The notes under the pieces: model-generated
Databases searched by the model: none
Seen by the model: the letters and a program-made list of their open reading frames with translations, nothing else
Told to the model about the DNA's origin: nothing
Made by a program: the position numbers and the translations under genes
DNA from: Planctomycetota bacterium
GTDB lineage: Bacteria; Planctomycetota; SZUA-567; H5-PLA8
Direction of reading: 5' to 3'
DNA: 16,657 bases
NCBI GenBank assembly: GCA_038227875.1
Contig: JBBRPR010000104.1
Location: 1-16,657 of the forward strand
In this document: piece by piece, positions 414 through 16,657 of the stretch
Numbering within the stretch: the stretch's first letter is position 1
Layout: every line of letters begins with the position of its first letter

Positions 414-2744
414 TCATTCCGAATCCAACACCTCTCGAACTTTGAAAAGTAGTACTTTACTTGAAAATGGCTTTTCAAGAAATTCGGACTCAGCTCCCAG
501 AATGCCGTGATTCTTGATGGCATCATCAGTGTAGCCGGAAACGTAAAGCGTCTTTATCTTTGGGCAGATCGACAGCATCCGTTCCGCCAACTTGCGTCCA
601 CCCATCCGAGGCATGACCACGTCCGTAATTAAAAGATCAAAGGTGGCCTTTTTTGCAATCTCAAGTGCCTCCGAGCCATCGCGAGCAGAAACGACTGTGT
701 AACCTGCATCTGAAAGTATTTCCTCGGCGAGATCGCGAACGCCCTCTTCATCTTCGGCAATGAGGACTCGTTCCATTCCTACGGGAATGAACGCGACCCC
801 AGAGGTGGCCTTTCGCTCGCCGGAGATGAGCTTGTCTATAGTTGGCAAGTAGATCTTGAATGTCGTGCCGACATCAGGTTCACTATACACCCAAACGTTC
901 CCATTGCTCTGTTTCACAATTCCGTAAACGGTTGACAGTCCTAGGCCGGTTCCTTTGCCGAGCTCCTTAGTCGTAAAAAACGGCTCAAAAATTCGATGCT
1001 GCGTTGCATCATCCATTCCGTGCCCTGTGTCACTCACCGAGATGCGGACAAATGGGCCGGGTCTGACGGATACGTGCCGCTTGGCGTAATCATCATCGAG
1101 ATCAACGTTCTCTGTCTGAATGGCCAGACGTCCTCCCTGGGGCATTGCATCGCGTGCGTTGATTACAAGATTCATGATTACTTGCTCGATTTGTCCCGCG
1201 TCGGCTTCAACATGGCGCAGTTTTTGGTCCAGCTTAATCGTCAGATTGATATCTTCGCCGATTAGACGCCGCAACATTTTTTCGATGTCAGATACGATAT
1301 TATTAATATTCAATATTTTTGGCTTTAAGACTTGCCTCCGACTGAATGCCAGCAATTGTCGCGTCAACGCTGCCGCACGTTCTCCAGTATTCAGGACCAG
1401 CTCAAAATCCTTGCGCAATGGATTGTCAATACTCATTTTTGAAATCGATAATTGGCAGCGTCCGTTAATGATAGTCAACAGGTTGTTGAAGTCGTGCGCG
1501 ATGCCGCCCGCAAGCATCCCGACCGATTCCATTCGTTGCGAAAGCCGAAGTTGCTCTTGCAATATGGCCTCTCTTTGAATTCGTAGGTAGCTATCGTACA
1601 ACACGCCAGAGGCGCTACAGAGAAATTCCAATTTCTTTATATCGGTCTCGGTATAACGGTCAGGACGGTTGGCAACACCGATCATGCCAACGACTTTTTG
1701 GCCCCACGAAATTGGAATTCCGAGAAAGGCTCGAAGCGGATGCGCCGTCATGCGACCGTCTGGGTGGAAATCGCTTTCCAGATCGTTCGAAGACACAGTC
1801 TTGTTCTCAAGGACGACCTTACCAAGCAGATTGTTCAAATTTGTAAATTCAAGACACCCATTCACTGGATGGGATTTAGTGGGTTGCTCAGAGGTCTCAC
1901 TCACGAAATTGATCCAGACCGCGCCCTCGTGTGCTAGAATGCGCAACGCAGGGCCGTCTATCAAAACTCCAGAAAAGCCGTACTCGCTGCCAGTTAGCTT
2001 CATTGCCGCTTGTACGATGATCGCACCAGCCTTACGAAAGTCATTTTCCTCAAGATACGCGGTCATTGCCTTCGTAATGGCTGTAAGCTGCGCCGTATGC
2101 TCCTGAATGCGTCGCTCAGCTTCAACGTTGTAAACCTGTAGCTTTTTACGCCACTGAACTTCTTTCGTCAGATCATCACATCGAGATGCTAGTTCCCGGG
2201 TTCGTGCTTGGACGAGACAATCTAGCTCCTGCATCTTGATGTTGGCCCGCCGGGATAGATTCCATTTCTCGGTCAGTGAGCAAGCCAATTGATGCACTTC
2301 GGACGCGTCAAAGGGCTTCTTGAGTATTAGAAATCGATCGGTCCGACCCAGTCTCTGCACAAGATCCTTCCATGAATACTCAGAATAGGCGCTGTAAATA
2401 ACAATTTGGGTGTCAGGAGAGGCTTGCCATAAATGCTCAATGGTTTTCACACCATCCCATCCAGGGGGCATTCGCATATCAACAAAGGCCAAAGCGTAAG
2501 GCTTTCCGTTTGCCATCGCCTGGCGCGCCATTTCAACTCCAATCTGTCCCTGTGAAGCGGTCTCAATTTCATACGCGGGCATTGAGGACCGATCCGAGTT
2601 GTTACCAAACAACTGGCACTCTACTTGGTCCAAGCAAGGCGATGTTCCCCGTTCGCATAGAATTTTTCGAAAGTCATCCTGGATCGCCTCGTTGTCATCC
2701 ACGATTAGTATCGGCCGGTTAGCATGTTTAGTGGGTAAATGCAT
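414..2744 (-). CDS. Cytoplasmic hybrid sensor histidine kinase/response regulator (REC-GAF-HisKA-HATPase-REC)
   Basis: N-terminal REC (ILIVDDN...FVDMRMP...LKKPF), GAF (FLGIPI...[10 protein letters not shown]), H-box [14 protein letters not shown]-box [15 protein letters not shown]1 DTGHGM, F-box FEPFFTTK, G2 GTGLGL, C-terminal REC (LLITDVVMP...FLEKPF). No TM segment. GGGAG RBS upstream. Confidence 0.95.
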
Positions 2745-2777
2745 GTAATCTCCCAGATGTTAGTTGCCGATCAATGT

Positions 2778-2823
2778 GTCCAAATTCGCGGACGGTCTAA
2801 ACAAGTTGTCTGAATTCTCGGAC
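2778..2823. promoter_or_regulatory. Paired palindromic sites, candidate upstream activator sequences for a sigma54 enhancer-binding protein
   Basis: GTCCAAATTCGCGGAC (2778-2793) and GTCTGAATTCTCGGAC (2808-2823) are 13/16 identical, both GTC-N10-GAC preceded by T, with a 30-bp period, about 180-230 bp upstream of the sigma54 motif. Confidence 0.55.
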
Positions 2824-3004
2824 TTATTAAGTTTACCCACCAGTAGCCGCAATTTGGATCAGGCGGCAAAGATATAGATGAGCGCAAACGCGTTGCCGGG
2901 TCCACCTTTACTGAATCTCACAGCAAAGTGCACACAAACCGCGTCCGCTCTGAAAATTCAACACATGCACGTGAGCGCGCCTGACCTTTTCATTGTCCTA
3001 GGAC

Positions 3005-3020
3005 TGGCATGAAAGCTGCG
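3005..3020 (+). promoter_or_regulatory. Sigma54 (-24/-12) promoter
   Basis: TGGCATGAAAGCTGCG has GG-N10-GC with a TGGCAY start and lies about 50 bp upstream of ATG 3068 (GGAG RBS at 3057-3060). Confidence 0.7.
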
Positions 3021-3067
3021 CATCGTGGATTGGAATTGAACGCACACTCTAAATACGGAGTAACGCC

Positions 3068-4231
3068 ATGAGAGTCTCGTACCGGCTTGGCCTCCTCGCT
3101 GCCTGCGCGGTCTTTGTGCCAGTATCAGTAGCAGAGGACGGAGTGACCGATACGGAAATCCTGCTGGGTCAGTCGGCCGCATTGACAGGAGCAGCGGAGG
3201 GACTCGGCACGAACATGAAGGTTGGCATGGAAGCATTCTTTGCACAGTGCAACGACAAGGGTGGGATCCACGGACGAAAGGTTAGGCTCATTTCAATCGA
3301 CGACAGCTATGAGCCAGAGAAGACGGTGGACGGGACGCTGAAGTTAATCGACGAAGACAAGGTATTCTCCCTGATCGGGTTCGTGGGCACTCCAACGACC
3401 AAAGTCGCGATACCCATCGTACAGGAAAAAAAGGTGCCGCTGGTTGGACCATTCACCGGAGCGATGCTGCTGCGCGCGCCAGTCTCTCGATACATTTTTA
3501 ACATTCGATCATCGTACGACGATGAGACGGAAGGGCTGGTCCGCTACCTGCTCGATGATTTAAAACTTAAGAAGATCGCGGTGTTTTACCAGGATGACTC
3601 GTTCGGACTGGCGGGTCTCACGGGCACACAGAAAGCCATGAGGAAGCGTAACCTGGAAGTCGTATGTTCGGGCAAGTTTCCCCGCAATACCTTGGCGGTT
3701 AAGACCGGCCTAAGCGCCGTGATACAGGGCCAGCCCGAAGCAGTGATTATGGTTGGCCCGTACAAACCCGTTGCAGAGTTCGTAAAGATAGCTCAAGAAT
3801 CACAGTTCAATCCACTGTTCGTCACCATTTCATTCGTGGGCACTGAGAACCTGATCAAAGAACTGGGACCGCTTTCTGAAAATCTTGTCATTTCGCAAGT
3901 CGTACCGCCTCCCGACGACACGACTTTTCCGATCGTTAGGGAGTTTTGCGACGCTTTAAAAAAAACGCATCCGGAGGTTGAGCCGAACTTCGTAGCACTG
4001 GAAGGCTTCATCGCAGCAAAAGTTCACTCTCTTGCGATGGTCGAAGTCGGCAAGGACCTAACACGCGAACGATTCATTTCAGAATTAGAGAAGATGAACG
4101 CCCTCGATATCGGCGGATTGACTATTTCGTTCTCAAAGGATGACCATCAAGGGTTGGACCGCGTGTTCTTGACGCGCGTAACCAACGGCAAGGCCAAGGC
4201 CATTCAAACACGTCAGGTAAACAGAAAATGA
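3068..4231 (+). CDS. Periplasmic substrate-binding protein, type I (LivJ/K branched-chain amino acid family)
   Basis: Signal peptide then GVTDTEILLGQSAALTG, GGIHGRKVRLISIDDSYEP, GFVGTPT and IAVFYQDDSFG. Stop codon overlaps the next start (ATGA). Confidence 0.92.
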   Translation: MRVSYRLGLLAACAVFVPVSVAEDGVTDTEILLGQSAALTGAAEGLGTNMKVGMEAFFAQCNDKGGIHGRKVRLISIDDSYEPEKTVDGTLKLIDEDKVFSLIGFVGTPTTKVAIPIVQEKKVPLVGPFTGAMLLRAPVSRYIFNIRSSYDDETEGLVRYLLDDLKLKKIAVFYQDDSFGLAGLTGTQKAMRKRNLEVVCSGKFPRNTLAVKTGLSAVIQGQPEAVIMVGPYKPVAEFVKIAQESQFNPLFVTISFVGTENLIKELGPLSENLVISQVVPPPDDTTFPIVREFCDALKKTHPEVEPNFVALEGFIAAKVHSLAMVEVGKDLTRERFISELEKMNALDIGGLTISFSKDDHQGLDRVFLTRVTNGKAKAIQTRQVNRK

Positions 4232-12200: not shown

Positions 12201-12574
12201 CGATCGCGGTTGATGCCAAAGGAAACGGCAAGGCGCCGAGCCTCAATAGGTACATCCAGAAATTCCAACTGCGCCTGCCCAAGCCGAAGAAGCCCGCGAC
12301 CACGCTGCCGACCGACAAACCCGCCAGTTTTTCGTTCACGCTCAGCGACAAAGGTTTCGCTGCGGCCGCGAACCTCGTGAACAACGGCTTCGACACGGAA
12401 GGCGTCAGCTCCGCCGTCATTCCCTCCGAGAAGACGCTGAAGACGCTCACTCGCCAGATTCAGATTGCGCTGGCTATTAACGGCGTAGGATATCAATCGA
12501 CGGTGCCGGTGACCTTCAAACGTTCCAGCACCAACGACAGCGGCTCCATCTCGGGACGCTCGGCAACGAAGTGA
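9239..12574 (+). CDS. Secreted NHL-repeat (12 repeats) + PKD domain protein with an uncharacterised C-terminal region
   Basis: ATG 9239 preferred over TTG 9206 (AGAGGGA RBS; signal peptide ending AARA|VD). Twelve ~56-aa repeats (ITTVAGTG..GFSGDGGPA..A.L..P.GV.VD..GNVFIADT.NNRIRK), then PKD-like NAPP...DPENDTLDYIFDPGDGT...HSFSAAGLY. Confidence 0.92.
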   Translation: MYRLPGYSARIFVLPICAVLSCSCAARAVDVISTYAGSGFGANNADGVAATSSSVFPVTDAVAVAVDAFGNVFFIDEHRVRRIDAASGIVTTVAGTGSGGFSGDGGPAIAAHVFEAQGLCVDSAGNVFIADTGNNRIRKVTAATGVISTVAGIGGAGAFAGDGGPSTAASLFAPRGVCIDSLGNVFIADTKNFCVRKVAAGTGIITTVAGQGGVFGNGGDGGVPTSATLGKPIAVVVDSGNQLFIADQQFNRVRMASAMITNFAGSNTGTSGYTGDGGLATSCTLNSPAGLAIDSSNNLYIADSNNNVVRVVDSSVFHINTIAGTGSSGFSGDNGPPLLATLSLTSGVAVGSGGSPDVFIYDRNNYRIRKIHLGTITTVGGTGGGAFADGPSATASFFLPDTLFVDPSGNVYVADANNNRIRKIDTSGTVTTVAGTGVPGFSGDAGPATSAQLNHPNGVFVDGMGQIFIADTDNSCVRVVNPAGIINTLAGQAGMPGFSGDNGPAGASKLDTPEALTADPSGNLYILDSNDNIIRKISGGIITTIAGSPGVSAFAGDGGPASGARFCGPLGLFFEPSSQSLFIADAAGARIRKIDAAGNVSTVAGNGIAANSGDGGPANAASLVYPSGVCAMPDGTVFITDQGAHVIRKIDGVTGVISTFAGTGVPGFSGDGGAATQAKLHTPAAIFPRPGALFILDAGNNRVRRTVFNAPPFIVSATVQTPILVGTPATITVAATDPENDTLDYIFDPGDGTGPVHTGNINTVTHSFSAAGLYIGTVLISDPYQSVMRSTPILVFAPASGGAGVTNVAQNDPLLTKVTDPVNGISVSVSNSDGGVVELFIDLASLTRDDFAVSTDYAGIGGRTLNSLTLSSVTGLRPVQQFLEQGIYVAKVNAVRTADNTSAGTARKTLVIDRMEVGDTALALTAPKSHKIYASSLKGNFLFGRSGAASASGGSSSVTLSGTIPLPGGLDASAPIALQVAIGNIVDSIAVDAKGNGKAPSLNRYIQKFQLRLPKPKKPATTLPTDKPASFSFTLSDKGFAAAANLVNNGFDTEGVSSAVIPSEKTLKTLTRQIQIALAINGVGYQSTVPVTFKRSSTNDSGSISGRSATK

Positions 12575-12698
12575 GTCGAGGCGCTGCGGGCCGAGTTCCG
12601 GAAATTCGAGAGGCGGATGGTCGGCGGCGAAAATAACCTAGGTGGTCTGAATGAATCAGACTTCTCGAAGATGATCGGGTATTTCGAAGGGTTGGACG

Positions 12699-12890
12699 TG
12701 GAATTGCCTAGCAGCCCGTTGATAATGGCACAGTGTCTGCGACCGTTACGCGGCGGCCACGAATGAAGGCCCGATTTGATTTTCCCGTTCGCTGTCGTGG
12801 TATCCGGCTGCGTGGACTCCCATAGCCGCGAAAACGCCGCAAATGATACTTTTTGCTGCGTTGGCCAACTCTCGCGGCGTACCGTATCCG
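12699..12890. mobile_element. Possible truncated MITE/IS end interrupting the recombinase remnant
   Basis: CTAGCAGCCCGTTGATAA at about 12708-12725 resembles TA-GCAGCC(C/T)GTTGAAAA-type IS/MITE termini. No matching second inverted repeat was found. Confidence 0.25.
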
Positions 12891-13089
12891 ACTCGGTGAC
12901 GGTCGTTTCAGAGATCGTCGCCAACGCCGAAAAGATGCTCGACGATCTTTTTAACGCACAAGGTGAACGACTGAAGGCGGTGCTGAGCGAGCTGGTGGAC
13001 GGCGTGGACTTGGGGTGGAAGGAGAAGAGGCGGACGCGGTTCGTGGCGAGCGGCGAAGTGCGGCTGAAATCGGACTTAACAGGTAGGTA

Positions 13090-13106
13090 TCGGGGCGACA
13101 GGACTC
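13090..13106 (-). mobile_element. att-core-like copy of a tRNA-Pro 3' end
   Basis: Minus strand GAGT-CCTGT-CGCCCCG-A corresponds to tRNA positions 57-73 (half T-loop, T-stem 3' strand, acceptor 3' strand) with G72/A73 as in tRNA-Pro. The rest of the tRNA is absent. Confidence 0.6.
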
Positions 13107-13461
13107 CAATAGAACTTTTTTACCGAGACGCAAGTACGATGGATGGTGAAATGCAAGCATACATAGGGAATGTGATCATATCGGTAAGCGCAACGACACG
13201 ATGTCGCTAAACATGTCGACACCAGGTGCGCGCGCCCCTGGCGCTTCGTTGATTTGCACGCACCGAATTGATGAAGAAGTAGCCGTGAATCGTGAATGTT
13301 GTCCGTCTGCTTCTGGACATCGTAGAGCAATTGCGCCATGGAGCGTTCGGGGCCGATCGCCGTCGCCGGGTTCGAAACTTTTGGTGCGCACTGGAAACGG
13401 ACTGAATATGACTTCGGTCCCAGGAAAAAGAATCTGGATTGAATGCGGCGCAAGCCCCCGG

Positions 13462-13959
13462 TCAATGCTTCGCGCTCTCCGCCGTCTCTTTCAACTCCGT
13501 CTGCGACAGGATGCAGTCGGCGTCCAGCAGAATGACCACGCGCTTGCCGACCTTGGCCATGCCCTGGATGAACTCTGTGGCGATGTCCACGCCAAATTCC
13601 GGAGTCGCTTCGATTTGATCGGCGTTGACGTTCAGCACTTCGCATACCGTATCCACGATGATGCCCATCGTGATGTTCGAGTCGCCGCGCTGGACCTGCA
13701 CCACCACGATGCATGTCCGTTCGGTGTCCGAGTTGGCATCGAAGTTCAGCTTGCGCCGCAGGTCGATCACCGCGATCACTTTTCCGCGCAGGTTGATCAC
13801 GCCGCGGATGTACTCGGGCGCGCGAGGCACCCGGGTGACGTTCATGATTCCGATGATCTCCTGAACTTTCAGGATCTCCAACCCGTAGAGTTCTCCGGCC
13901 AAGTTGAAGGTCAGGTACCGTCCGGCTCGCGCGCTTTTCGCATTCAAAGTGTTGCTCAT
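13462..13959 (-). CDS. cheW: Chemotaxis coupling protein CheW
   Basis: YLTFNLAGELYGLEILKVQEII...TRVPRAPEYIRGVINLRGKVIAVIDLR...GIIVDTVCEV. Start placed at ATG 13959 (AAGGGAAG upstream) rather than 14004. Confidence 0.96.
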   Translation of the reverse strand: MSNTLNAKSARAGRYLTFNLAGELYGLEILKVQEIIGIMNVTRVPRAPEYIRGVINLRGKVIAVIDLRRKLNFDANSDTERTCIVVVQVQRGDSNITMGIIVDTVCEVLNVNADQIEATPEFGVDIATEFIQGMAKVGKRVVILLDADCILSQTELKETAESAKH

Positions 13960-14010
13960 TTTTTCTTCCCTTATCAGATGAGGAGAGAGTTTCGAAACTG
14001 TCACCGGCGG

Positions 14011-15738
14011 TTAGAAGCCGCTCAGTTCCTCATCCGTAAGTGGGATCGCTGTCGAGGGTTTCAGATGCTTGCCGTTTCCATTGCTGGTGCCATTGACATG
14101 AGCGGCAACGCGATTGACCGGCGCCTTGGCGGACTTGGGCGGGCTGGACACGTTTTCCTTTCGCGCGGGTGCCGTCGCGATATGGGAGCGTGCGGCTGAA
14201 GCTATCTCGACACGAGCGGCGCCAGGCTGGGCCAGCGATTCGTCGCCGCCGCGGATCAGCTTGATCAGCGCATTGACCATGTCCTGCAACTCGCGGGACT
14301 GCGCCGACAACTCTTCGCTGGCAGACGCGGTTTCTTCGGCATTGGCGGCGTTGGACTGTGTAACCTTGTCCATTTCGCTGACGGCCATGTTGATCTGCTC
14401 GACGCCCTTCGACTGCTCGTCGCTGGCGGCCGCGACTTCGCCGATTAACTGCTTGACCTTGTTGGCGGCTTCGACGGTGTTGGCGAAGCTCTTCGCGATC
14501 TCGACTTCCACGGCGCGCTTCAGGATCTCCGACACTTCCGCCGAAGCCTTGACGCCGTTCTCAGCGTTATGCTGCGATTCTTCGATCAGCGCGGCGGTGT
14601 TCTTCGCGGCTTCGGCCGAACGCTGCGCCAGGTTGCGGACTTCCTCGGCGACGACGGCGAAGCCCTTGCCGGCTTCCCCTGCCCGCGCGGCTTCCACGGC
14701 GGCGTTGAGCGCCAGCAGGTTGGTCTGGAACGCGATCTCGTCGATGGTCTTGATGATTTTCGCGGTCTGGTCGGCCGACGTCTTGATCTTCTTGATGGCG
14801 GCGTTCATGCCGTCGATGCGGGATTTGATTTCGCTGCCCATCTTGTGCGAGGTCGACTGGCCAGACTCCGCGGCGGAACTGGCTTCATCCGAAACCGCGC
14901 GAGCGGACCGGGCGTTGTCGGCGTTCTGGCGCGTCATCGATGCCATTTCTTCCAGCGACGCCGACGTCTCTTCCAAACTCGACGCTTGTTCGCTCGCGCC
15001 CGACGCCATGCTCTGGCTGGACTGCGCGACTTGCGACGCGGCCGCGAATACCTGTTCGGCGCTGGATCGCAAGTTCATGGCGATGGCGTTCAGCGATCCA
15101 TTCACGCTTCGAATGATCAGGAACGCCGCGCTGCCGCCGAAGAGAAGCGCTATGCCAATCGCAAACACGACTCCCCACTGCGCCTGAGCGATCGACGACG
15201 AGATTTTTACCGAAGCGGCATCGCCGTTCTCCTTATTGAAGTCCACCAGATTGTTCAGCGCAATCATGTACTTCGCATAGGCGGGATCAACACTCGACTT
15301 TAACAGCGCCAGGGCTTCCTTCGTTTTTCCTTCATCCGCCAGCTCAATCGCTTTATTACCGGCGTTGACGTACTCCGCGCGTGGCGCATTGATGGCGTCA
15401 AACAGCTCACGGTCACGCGGCAGAAAGATGGTTTTGGCGTACTCCTCGCCGGTCTTGGAGATCTTTTCACGCCCTTCTTTCAGTTTCGTTTTCCGGTCTT
15501 CAATTTCCTTCTTTTCGTCAGCCGTTAGAATTCTGAGCAGTGAGATGAAATTTTCCTTGGCCTGTCCGCGAATCAGGCAGATATCATAAACGCCCGGCAA
15601 ACAGTCGGTCGTGATCACGTTTGCATCTTCACCAATGGCGCTGAGTCGACTACGCGAAAATAGACCGAGCGCCACCATGATGGCCAGAATCACTAAGAAG
15701 CCCAAAATGATTTTCTTACCGATCGTAAAGTTGCTCAT
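14011..15738 (-). CDS. Methyl-accepting chemotaxis protein (TM, four-helix-bundle sensor, TM, signalling domain)
   Basis: TM1 [19 protein letters not shown], 4HB_MCP-like region, TM2 [22 protein letters not shown], hairpin tip [40 protein letters not shown], methylation helices EQASSLEET and [11 protein letters not shown], tail ending DEELSGF. Confidence 0.96.
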
Positions 15739-15794
15739 GTGATTAGCCCTTGCGTCCTTTGCCTATAGTTCAATATTTCACCTTGGTTTTCAAA

Positions 15795-15810
15795 AGCACG
15801 AACCATGCCA
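15795..15810 (-). promoter_or_regulatory. Sigma54 (-24/-12) promoter for mcp-cheW
   Basis: Minus strand TGGCATGGTTCGTGCT has GG-N10-GC and ends 56 bp upstream of the MCP ATG. Confidence 0.75.
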
Positions 15811-15893
15811 CGTCCTAAAATGTGAAGGTTTGGCAATAGTTGCAACAAATTTGTAGGGAGGGAGGAAATTTTCGCACAAACTCAAATCTCGCT

Positions 15894-15939
15894 GTCCGAT
15901 TCTTCGGATCGCATACGAGCGCTTGTTTGAATCTCGGTC
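15894..15939. promoter_or_regulatory. Candidate upstream activator sequences for the mcp sigma54 promoter
   Basis: GTCCGATTCTTCGGAT (15894-15909; TCCGA-N4-TCGGA palindrome) and GTTTGAATCTCGGTC (15925-15939) have a 31-bp period, lie 85-130 bp upstream of the -24 box and resemble the sites at 2778-2823. Confidence 0.45.
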
Positions 15940-16126
15940 GGCGGTCCCAATACAATTTGTGCAAGAACACGATCAATCCGCCGCTGTTCTCCCATATATC
16001 GAAGCTTCGATTTCCGGGTAAACGTGAAGACGGTCCAATTTTCACAAGCGCCAGTTTCCTGTTCTCGACGATACGCGCGCTCATGCAATTTAGCTTCCTC
16101 CCAGCAGGTGATTAAGGTGCTTTAGT

Positions 16127-16657
16127 TAGTTCCTGTTTCCAAATTGAAATGCGTGCCACGGTTTTATGCCCGAAGTAACACGTGGGCATGAGAATGCTGG
16201 TGCGTGTAGTCGTTTCGAGCAAAATTGGATGGCTCCGGACAGAGTTTCTTCGTGGTCACTCGGGCTCCTCCCTCGCCTGCGTTACCCGTTCAAGTTCGAG
16301 CCAGCAGCACCAAGTTGTGCGCCAACACGCCGGTTCCCACCCAGCTCTAGAATCGCGCGTAGCCTTCACGCATGCAGCGCCATAATCCAAACACACGTTT
16401 CAGTACGGAAATCGTGCCCTCGATTCCCGCGCGGAATGCCTGCGCCAGTTTGAACCATGGACTGCGCTCGCGCCTTTCTTCCTTCGCGTCTCGCCGTCCT
16501 TTTTTCGGCACGCAAACCCTCGCGCCTAGTTCCGCCGCCTGCTTCACAGCTTCCTCAGAGTAAAAACCCTTGTCCGCGCATACGACAGGCGAACGCTGAA
16601 AGATTTCCCGGTGCCGTGTCACAGCTTGACTCAGGAGGGGCGCTTCGGCCGGGCGCC
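16127..16657 (-). mobile_element. Right part of an insertion sequence (ISNCY/IS5-like), truncated by the window edge
   Basis: Contains a transposase 3' end. TAGTTCCTGTTTCCAAA at 16127-16143 is a candidate terminus, but the boundary cannot be verified without the other end. Confidence 0.6.
16290..16657 (-). pseudogene. DDE transposase C-terminus with a premature amber stop
   Basis: Open from the window edge: CADKGFYS...FRAGIEGTISVLKRVFGLWRC. TAG at 16347-16349 is followed in frame by SWVGTGVLAHNLVLLART* (TGA 16290-16292), the expected conserved AHNL terminal helix. Confidence 0.8.

Follow-up and report, generated by a model that had tools for sequence, protein, structure and literature searches.

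How does the gene of a recombinase come to encode part of its own C-terminus with the end of a tRNA gene? The question is raised by positions 12575 to 13210 of a stretch of 16,657 nucleotides (the window), which is the entire contig C104 of a planctomycetotal assembly (G000; 9.3 Mb in 176 contigs, 88% completeness). Here the end of a gene for a large serine recombinase (LSR) runs in frame through an exact copy of the 3' end of a host tRNA-Pro gene and then into island-side DNA. A reading made earlier from the sequence alone had proposed an attP-type junction, i.e., the attachment site of a free element, inside a serine-integrase gene, and the 3' ends that related LSR genes place over antisense tRNA-Pro genes support it. 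Positions 12884 to 13165 are very probably the fossil of such a junction, left by an LSR-mobilised island that targets tRNA-Pro 3' ends.

The end of a recombinase gene and its tRNA-Pro core

The final 77 codons of an LSR gene occupy positions 12884 to 13102 on the plus strand and align, with a 4-codon deletion, to residues 474-550 of P0014, an LSR of 551 residues with all three Pfam domains of such enzymes. The remnant is identical to the C-terminus of P0014 at 53 of 77 positions (BLASTP, E 2e-30; tblastn, 69% over 77 residues). When eight family proteins were compared with the window by tblastn, 12863-13165 was the sole match, and neither this comparison nor Pfam detected in the window a Resolvase catalytic domain with its nucleophilic serine, a Recombinase domain (PF07508) or a zinc beta ribbon (PF13408). 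The window therefore holds a gene fragment and no member protein. Among 1.84 billion representative sequences, HMMER returned nine matches, two of which are open reading frames (ORFs) of the window itself, and six relatives cover query residues 101-197 only. Several of these six end in RGDRTPIELF plus about 18 residues that finish with AA. P0004, a protein of 4071 residues with 17 matched stretches, was discarded as a low-complexity false hit, being a repetitive adhesin-like protein.

The recombinase relatives that the sequence-only reading had called for thus exist for 12884-13102, and its description of two recombinase-like fragments holds for this part. It is not borne out for the preceding stretch, 12575 to 12883 on the plus strand. 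This stretch shares the frame of the remnant, with one interrupting TGA at 12764, and relatives of it could not be detected. Its two parts (12575-12763 and 12767-12883) have no Pfam hit and match only the window's own ORFs among the same representatives, and with no support from Pfam, HMMER or tblastn it is not accepted as recombinase. An intact integrase of the family was not found by tblastn in the assembly, which contains only a distant LSR on contig C70 with no significant likeness to the piece in the window.

Within the remnant frame, positions 13088 to 13103 (minus strand) form the presumptive att core: these 16 nt reproduce without mismatch the tRNA-Pro(TGG) 3' end from T60 to A73 and two flanking bases; the 17-mer GAGTCCTGTCGCCCCGA is located at 13090-13106 on the minus strand. 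The host has a single tRNA-Pro(TGG) gene, located where contigs C49 and C99 overlap at their ends. As its 3' end GAATCCTGTCGCCCCGA continues with TA, the block shared exactly with the window is 16 nt long, TCCTGTCGCCCCGATA. Counting the T-loop in, window and tRNA agree at 20 of 22 positions. A tRNA-Pro(CGG) gene on contig C86 ends with the identical 14 nt, so that host genes with the expected 3' end were found for both anticodons; ARAGORN recognises six tRNA-Pro genes or copies in the host genome and calls no tRNA within the window. The codons CGG GGC GAC AGG (13091-13102, frame of 12575) encode RGDR, and TPIELF comes next. As the earlier reading had it, the RGDR codons lie on the reverse complement of the tRNA-Pro 3' end, and the likeness stops at the T-loop, beyond T60, where the window has CAATAG. 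Integrase body end, core and island-side DNA share one open frame (12767-13207), and base composition displays no sharp boundary at 13090.

Relatives with two endings and islands with two ends

Direct evidence for an exchange at these codons comes from the proteins P0021 (555 residues, from a contig of 7317 nt) and P0009 (231 residues, from a contig of 1096 nt), which belong to the same 90% cluster and are identical at 205 of 207 positions up to ...SRGDR. Past RGDR, P0021 has one isoleucine and a stop (...SRGDRI), P0009 a 24-residue tail, TPIELFCDGVWSMDAAIQRFVMAA (end ...SRGDRTPIELFCDGVWSMDAAIQRFVMAA). The split of this pair immediately after RGDR places the exchange point at the RGDR codons. 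P0005 and P0012 likewise differ in their endings and are identical at 84 of 95 positions. The contigs of P0009 and P0005 are too short to tell whether these proteins stem from whole genes. Judged from these sequences, one integrase has another C-terminus in its integrated form. The predicted swap of the integrase tail is thus borne out by the pair with both endings, and also by places, described below, in which core and tail follow DNA devoid of recombinase.

Full-length relatives contain Resolvase (PF00239, with the catalytic motif YLRRSTTKQ), Recombinase (PF07508) and zinc-ribbon (PF13408) domains. A search with the relative L017 (553 residues) returned proteins with Resolvase, Recombinase and Zn_ribbon_recom domains, and Recombinase plus zinc ribbon are carried by P0010-P0019, L027 and L034. 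As the sequence-only reading had anticipated, homologues are associated with tRNA ends: eight of the 13 LSR loci that can be read overlap a tRNA-Pro gene on the opposite strand (TGG or GGG, ARAGORN) and end in RG[DG][RG]I. The stop that follows is a TGA in the antisense T-loop. These loci (L019, L024, L027, L029, L033, L034, L035, and L047) represent six lineages, because L024, L033, and L035 are near-identical. The integrases of L027 (555 residues), L029 (557 residues), and L034 (577 residues) are intact, and L019 and L047 are LSR remnants. L024, L033, and L035 (LSR at about 500-2230) lie by tRNA-Pro(TGG), belong to a subfamily at 34% identity and share an in-frame TAG at codon 242. The same RG..I type of ending is found in P0014, P0015, P0012, P0021, and P0008. 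Left out of the 13 are L028, L030, L031, and L037, which are at contig ends, and L032 and L036, with broken frames. For the joined state the earlier reading had expected RGDRTRT; what would be read instead is RGDRI and a stop with the T-loop TTCAAAT, or RGDRIRTCDLLVPNQAL and a stop with the TGG gene of the host. Upstream of the integrase, the intact island L027 encodes a D5-like primase-helicase (742-3429) and the intact island L034 a Cas3 helicase-nuclease (306-2609).

Some islands can be followed to both ends. On contig C4 of genome G008, a junction of flank, core and tail and a tRNA-Pro(TGG) gene are separated by 14.7 kb and oriented as predicted, bounded by the 14-bp direct repeat TCGGGGCGACAGGA; an ORF of 227 residues with a Zn_ribbon_recom domain abuts the tRNA gene and ends in GRGDRI and a stop, and genes for PD-(D/E)XK and DUF932 proteins are nearby. 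On contig C93 of genome G009, the repeat TCGGGGCGACAGGA bounds 3.1 kb with one SNF2 helicase gene and a tRNA-Pro(CGG) gene, and an LSR is absent. Of the signature by which Islander recognises islands (an intact tRNA gene, a displaced 3' repeat and an integrase inside), the window has a fragment only and no whole integrase; among the relatives it is seen at G008:C4 with an LSR remnant and at G009:C93 with no LSR.

On the tail side, the core and its island-side arm CTCCAATAGAACTTTTT form a 32-nt block (13089 to 13120), which is 94-97% conserved in four other genera and is presumed to be the attP half-site on this side. A scan of seven loci against Rfam at E 0.1 gave no matches, so that the conserved block is not a known RNA. 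A 27-mer of core and arm, with up to three mismatches, occurs at nine places in five of 62 genomes of the class, and its reversed control at none; all five genomes belong to the family of the window (five of 17, G000 counted). At seven of the nine places, a flank without LSR homology is followed by the core and then by the tail TPIELF...AA. The body end joined to core and tail is found in the window, on contig C17 of G008 and in the proteins P0005, P0006, and P0009. The 26 open codons before the core on G008:C17 are identical in nucleotide sequence to the end of an LSR remnant on contig C9 of the same genome. At L010 and L011, 152 and 105 open codons of similar sequence (...PY[EQ]G.TGR...GNVNR|GD.TPIELF) precede the core in frame with the tail, perhaps a gene of the host or of foreign origin that reads into an orphan tail.

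A few further sites touch on the core. At L016 (G008:C9, about 2102) and L036 (about 5296) another conserved arm, RGD[WS][IV][CR]PVVKV, which is neither tRNA nor TPIELF, continues past the core and may be a second tail type or belong to a second target. At its end (38801-38848), contig C76 of the host carries a tRNA-Pro(CGG)-like gene that lacks its 5' half and encodes CCA; this 3' remainder is probably an att fragment of another island. Downstream of the tRNA-Pro(CGG) gene on C86 (29756-29920), the antisense strand reads ...LTIGYRGDRI and a stop, agreeing with the end of P0014 at eight of ten positions; with E 0.21 this gives only a hint of a tiny integrase relic or of a shared half-site motif. 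The pattern TTAAC-N11/12-TCGGGG is found again in the window, L027, and L029.

The homology, the types of junction, the direct repeats and the two forms of one protein can be read directly from the sequences compared. They fit a scheme in which the crossover core would be the 14 nt with which the tRNA ends (TCCTGTCGCCCCGA), lying within the integrase frame and coding for RGDR. In the free (attP) form the integrase gene would run about 24 codons further (TPIELFMR.ALGL....Q..I.AA and a stop). After insertion, the gene body at one end of the island would read into the antisense tRNA (RG..I, with the stop supplied by the T-loop), and the tail codons would stay behind at the opposite end, 3-15 kb away. 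We infer that the LSR itself catalyses this exchange, with the cut falling presumably somewhere within the 14-16 nt.

In the window, the decayed tail (13103 to 13210, plus strand) is homologous to the family tail as far as 13165 (TPIELFYRDASTMDGEMQAYIG). Its family stop is lost, and consequently the frame runs on to the TAA at 13208-13210. The attP binding site of a serine integrase reaches about 25 bp from the crossover. Across the junctions of six relatives, the mean pairwise difference at first, second and third codon positions is 0.087, 0.033 and 0.127 in the RGDRTPIELF block and 0.341, 0.302 and 0.514 in the subsequent 17 codons of the tail. The low third-position divergence of core and arm argues that over the first 30 nt it is the DNA itself that is conserved, as would be expected where a recombinase binds. 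Further on, variation in the tail is greatest at third positions and its length is maintained, which in these alignments weakly suggests coding constraint. Length and stop position are kept at five of the seven flank-core-tail places. Seven of 12 tails end in AA (L010, L011, L012, L015, L046, P0005, and P0009); of the other five, that of L021 ends in AAL, those of L009 and P0006 are diverged, and those of the window and of contig C154 of the host are decayed. TPIELF and, in part, GL and Q..I.AA recur in proteins from unrelated metagenomes.

History of the window copy and competing explanations

Body end and tail still joined, as in the window, would be expected of a circle or of tandem islands in a chromosome, and C104 looks chromosomal. 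The most likely and most economical history has two related islands, each with tail, cheW and a gene for a methyl-accepting chemotaxis protein (MCP), standing one behind the other at a tRNA-Pro gene before a deletion; an identical outcome would follow if junctions at two different tRNA-Pro genes, both with this core, had recombined. By whichever route the joined form came to rest in the chromosome, the copy in the window is a dead relic and not a working switch: with the integrase reduced to its last 77 codons and the tail stop lost, no recombination is possible.

The genes to the right of the core fit this history. The nearest on the island side is cheW (13462 to 14004, minus strand; 180 residues, Pfam CheW, E 1.3e-37), followed by the MCP gene (14011 to 15738, minus strand; 575 residues, Pfam MCPsignal and 4HB_MCP_1). 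The block 13094 to 16057 is duplicated on contig C154 (L004, G000:C154:1-4117), with 84% identity over 13094-13208 and 92% over 13332-16057, and the duplication starts inside the core. This block, with tail, cheW and MCP gene, is presumed to be the left end of an island. To the left of its degenerate core, C154 has a flank resembling those of flank-core-tail places in two other genera. A fragment of a DDE transposase (16347-16655) is situated at the right contig end. The same 141-nt repeats terminate many contigs of the assembly, the left end of C154 matching about 15 of them, and contig ends that share such repeats point to high-copy insertion sequences in this genome.

The left part of the window encodes, in order, a hybrid histidine kinase, a periplasmic binding protein, a PAS kinase, a response regulator and, just before the stretch studied, an NHL/PKD protein of 1122 residues that ends at 12574. 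At 12572-12577 the frame of the latter, once past its own TGA stop, coincides with that of the integrase remnant, probably by chance (one in three). About 85 nt at 12706-12792 resemble C161:2329-2417 (74%), and a 25-nt part of them occurs again on contigs C107, C93, and C90; this small repeat may mark the point at which the integrase gene was cut.

Read evidence comes from one sequencing run, probably of the source sample, available as assembled contigs only, which lose rare variants. A Logan contig, i.e., an independent assembly of this run, covers 12511-13453 unbroken, showing that the junction is not an artefact of the assembly analysed here. Besides the joint of the window, the only joints at the core in the run are the C154 variant and the junction of one relative. 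The C154 variant forms a separate Logan contig with a depth of 12.7-14.9 versus 8.8 for the window, and owing to this difference C154 may be a paralogue or come from a co-binned strain. Following the loose ends at 13089 and 13120 in run X1 led to the exact flank-core-tail junction of G009:C93 in the same sample, and hence to a related organism, present alongside, that has a relic of this kind.

Several observations weigh against a fossil attP-type junction of a tRNA-Pro-specific island. Five of the 13 readable LSR ends miss the tRNA (L016, L017/L023, L018, L025, and L026). A full-length integrase with the tail was not found in searches from P0005, which gave P0012 as the only longer form, or from P0009, which gave none; this is weak evidence. 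Every joined form is short, and the contigs of P0005, P0006, and P0009 measure 1527, 628 and 1096 nt, so that these forms may have been cut by contig ends. The genes adjoining the tail differ at every locus, which implies that most flank-core-tail places are either relics or parts of rearranged DNA; comparing the right sides of the window and of its relatives revealed no common cargo further out than about 50-100 nt of core and tail. Dyad symmetry around the core is unclear (at best 10-12 of 26 positions), and the elements were not found in IMG/VR with either the DNA pattern or the protein profile. No circle or alternative junction appears among the contigs of the one run, which drop rare variants and are uninformative on circles. 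No tRNA-Pro gene, intact LSR of the family or second island end could be located on C104 or assigned to it. The break between C49 and C99 at the tRNA-Pro(TGG) gene was considered as an occupied/empty-site polymorphism and rejected: the two overlap by 141 nt and end 63 nt beyond the tRNA gene, not at the core.

That the tRNA likeness is a mere coincidence of the RGDR motif, or an assembly chimera at a short repeat, is very improbable. A 16-mer common to one of 81 tRNAs would be met somewhere in 16.7 kb with an estimated chance of about 0.04, which is not negligible for coincidence, but none of 200 dinucleotide-preserving shuffles of the window reproduces the 16-mer match, LSR genes of relatives overlap real tRNA-Pro genes, and core and arm are conserved as DNA across genera. 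A chimera is contradicted by the contig of the second assembler, which spans the junction, and by the overlaps of the assembly, which with 141 nt far exceed the repeat. The joined copy might also be a spare attP kept within a living element, consisting of a partial integrase gene end plus att site. All joined forms found do hold the gene end only; yet the length retained varies widely (26, 77, about 85, at least 95 and at least 207 codons) as if truncated at random, the 0.4-5 kb covered upstream of the gene in L026, L027, L029, and L034 yielded no second copy of the LSR end in either orientation, the assembly has no intact LSR of the family that a spare copy could serve, and the tail of the window lacks its stop. 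We regard a spare attP as unlikely.

Harder to judge is whether the tail, once separated, matters. With nearly even chances, its swap is a by-product without regulatory role, resulting from an att site at the end of a gene that tolerates read-through of 24 codons. For DsiB, a serine recombinase of Dehalococcoides whose ends are divergent, McMurdie et al. call this the "trivial explanation" (PMC3146451), and the integrated forms here, with about 551-577 residues, are already of normal LSR length. In the AlphaFold model of P0009 (mean pLDDT 68.8, from an alignment of 14 rows), the tail lies past the last folded beta hairpin and has pLDDT values under 50; a flexible end would agree with this, although the low confidence possibly reflects the thin alignment only. 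A by-product sits less easily with tails that keep length and stop at five of seven places and the AA ending in seven of 12, that vary most at third codon positions (0.34/0.30/0.51), and that have parts recurring in unrelated metagenomes. The tail may have a function. A doubtful though specific proposal is a switch, in which the tail would act on the free element as an ssrA-like degron or as an activity-modifying end and would be removed at RGDR upon insertion. The host tmRNA tag is ATHNEMALAA and the tails end in LAA, AAA or MAA; the degron is a guess from this resemblance, and we hold it just as tentatively.

Known systems and meaning for the family

In the textbook view, serine integrases do not use tRNA genes (PMC4383910); PMC12884075, PMC10083194, and PMC12424338 do not comment on this point. 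The literature searched, which leaves most subscription journals outside, did not include any report of a serine integrase that uses tRNA-Pro; the exception found in print is DsiB, the serine recombinase of the ssrA-specific islands of Dehalococcoides (McMurdie et al., 2011; PMC3146451). Like the LSRs described here, DsiB is a serine recombinase of about 540 residues at the island edge that targets a tRNA-like gene at its 3' end. In both cases the boundary falls within the T-loop, and a short, directly repeated piece of this 3' end delimits the island (20 bp for DsiB, 14 bp here); the DsiB gene "always overlaps attL at its 3' end," just as the LSR gene overlaps tRNA-Pro. Since ssrA islands stack in tandem, which is usual in Dehalococcoides, the DsiB gene can read into the next island, and the authors suggested that DsiB might be fully functional only on the circle or beside an adjacent island (PMC3146451). 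In contrast to the present family, DsiB targets the tmRNA gene (ssrA) in Chloroflexota, its islands possess a second small recombinase, DsiA, and a fixed module of six genes, neither of which is seen here, and the DsiB ends, as described there, differ from one another in both sequence and length; in the present family, the tail of the free form is conserved (TPIELF...AA). The family described here is a DsiB-type arrangement at tRNA-Pro, in another phylum and with a conserved free-form tail.

The large serine integrases of phages and ICEs, among them phiC31, Bxb1, A118, SPbeta SprA, and CcrB, resemble the family in their combination of Resolvase, Recombinase, zinc-ribbon and coiled-coil regions and in their short att sites, and they insert within protein-coding genes or at intergenic sites. 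The nearest NCBIfam models are CcrB, CcrC, and XisF, all far below cut-off.

Other integrase genes that cross attP are those of the Mx8 (IntP/IntX) and SSV type. In myxophage Mx8, attP lies in the integrase's coding sequence (IntP/IntX; Tojo, 1996; Magrini, 1999) and integration provides a new 3' end, as here; the altered protein is described as still active with changed properties (PMC6070905, PMC4383910). Mx8 Int is, however, a tyrosine recombinase with another mechanism and another att architecture (PMC6070905). In the integration-dependent immunity of mycobacteriophage BPs and its relatives, attP is inside a gene and integration removes an extension with an ssrA-like tag (Broussard, 2013), and integrases of the BPs type also bear a C-terminal proteolysis signal (PMC4557955). 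In BPs, it is the repressor gene that is split, recombination is carried out by a tyrosine integrase, and experiments have demonstrated the degradation (PMC4557955), whereas here the split gene is the integrase itself and not an immunity repressor, and the degron is only a likeness.

If the tail is indeed a switch, stability or directionality of the enzyme would be set by the integration state of its own element, and the family would stand beside Mx8 IntP/IntX and integration-dependent immunity as their equivalent among serine integrases. The pair P0021/P0009 and the conserved tail make the idea of an enzyme that is complete only on the circle directly testable. Large DNA is inserted mainly with serine integrases, enzymes that do not depend on host factors, and a family that targets the tRNA-Pro 3' end and restores it would offer a landing site in almost any bacterium. 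For the genome at hand, the finding explains the duplicated block on C154 and means that the DNA from 13094 onward, with cheW and the MCP gene, arrived with or beside an island.

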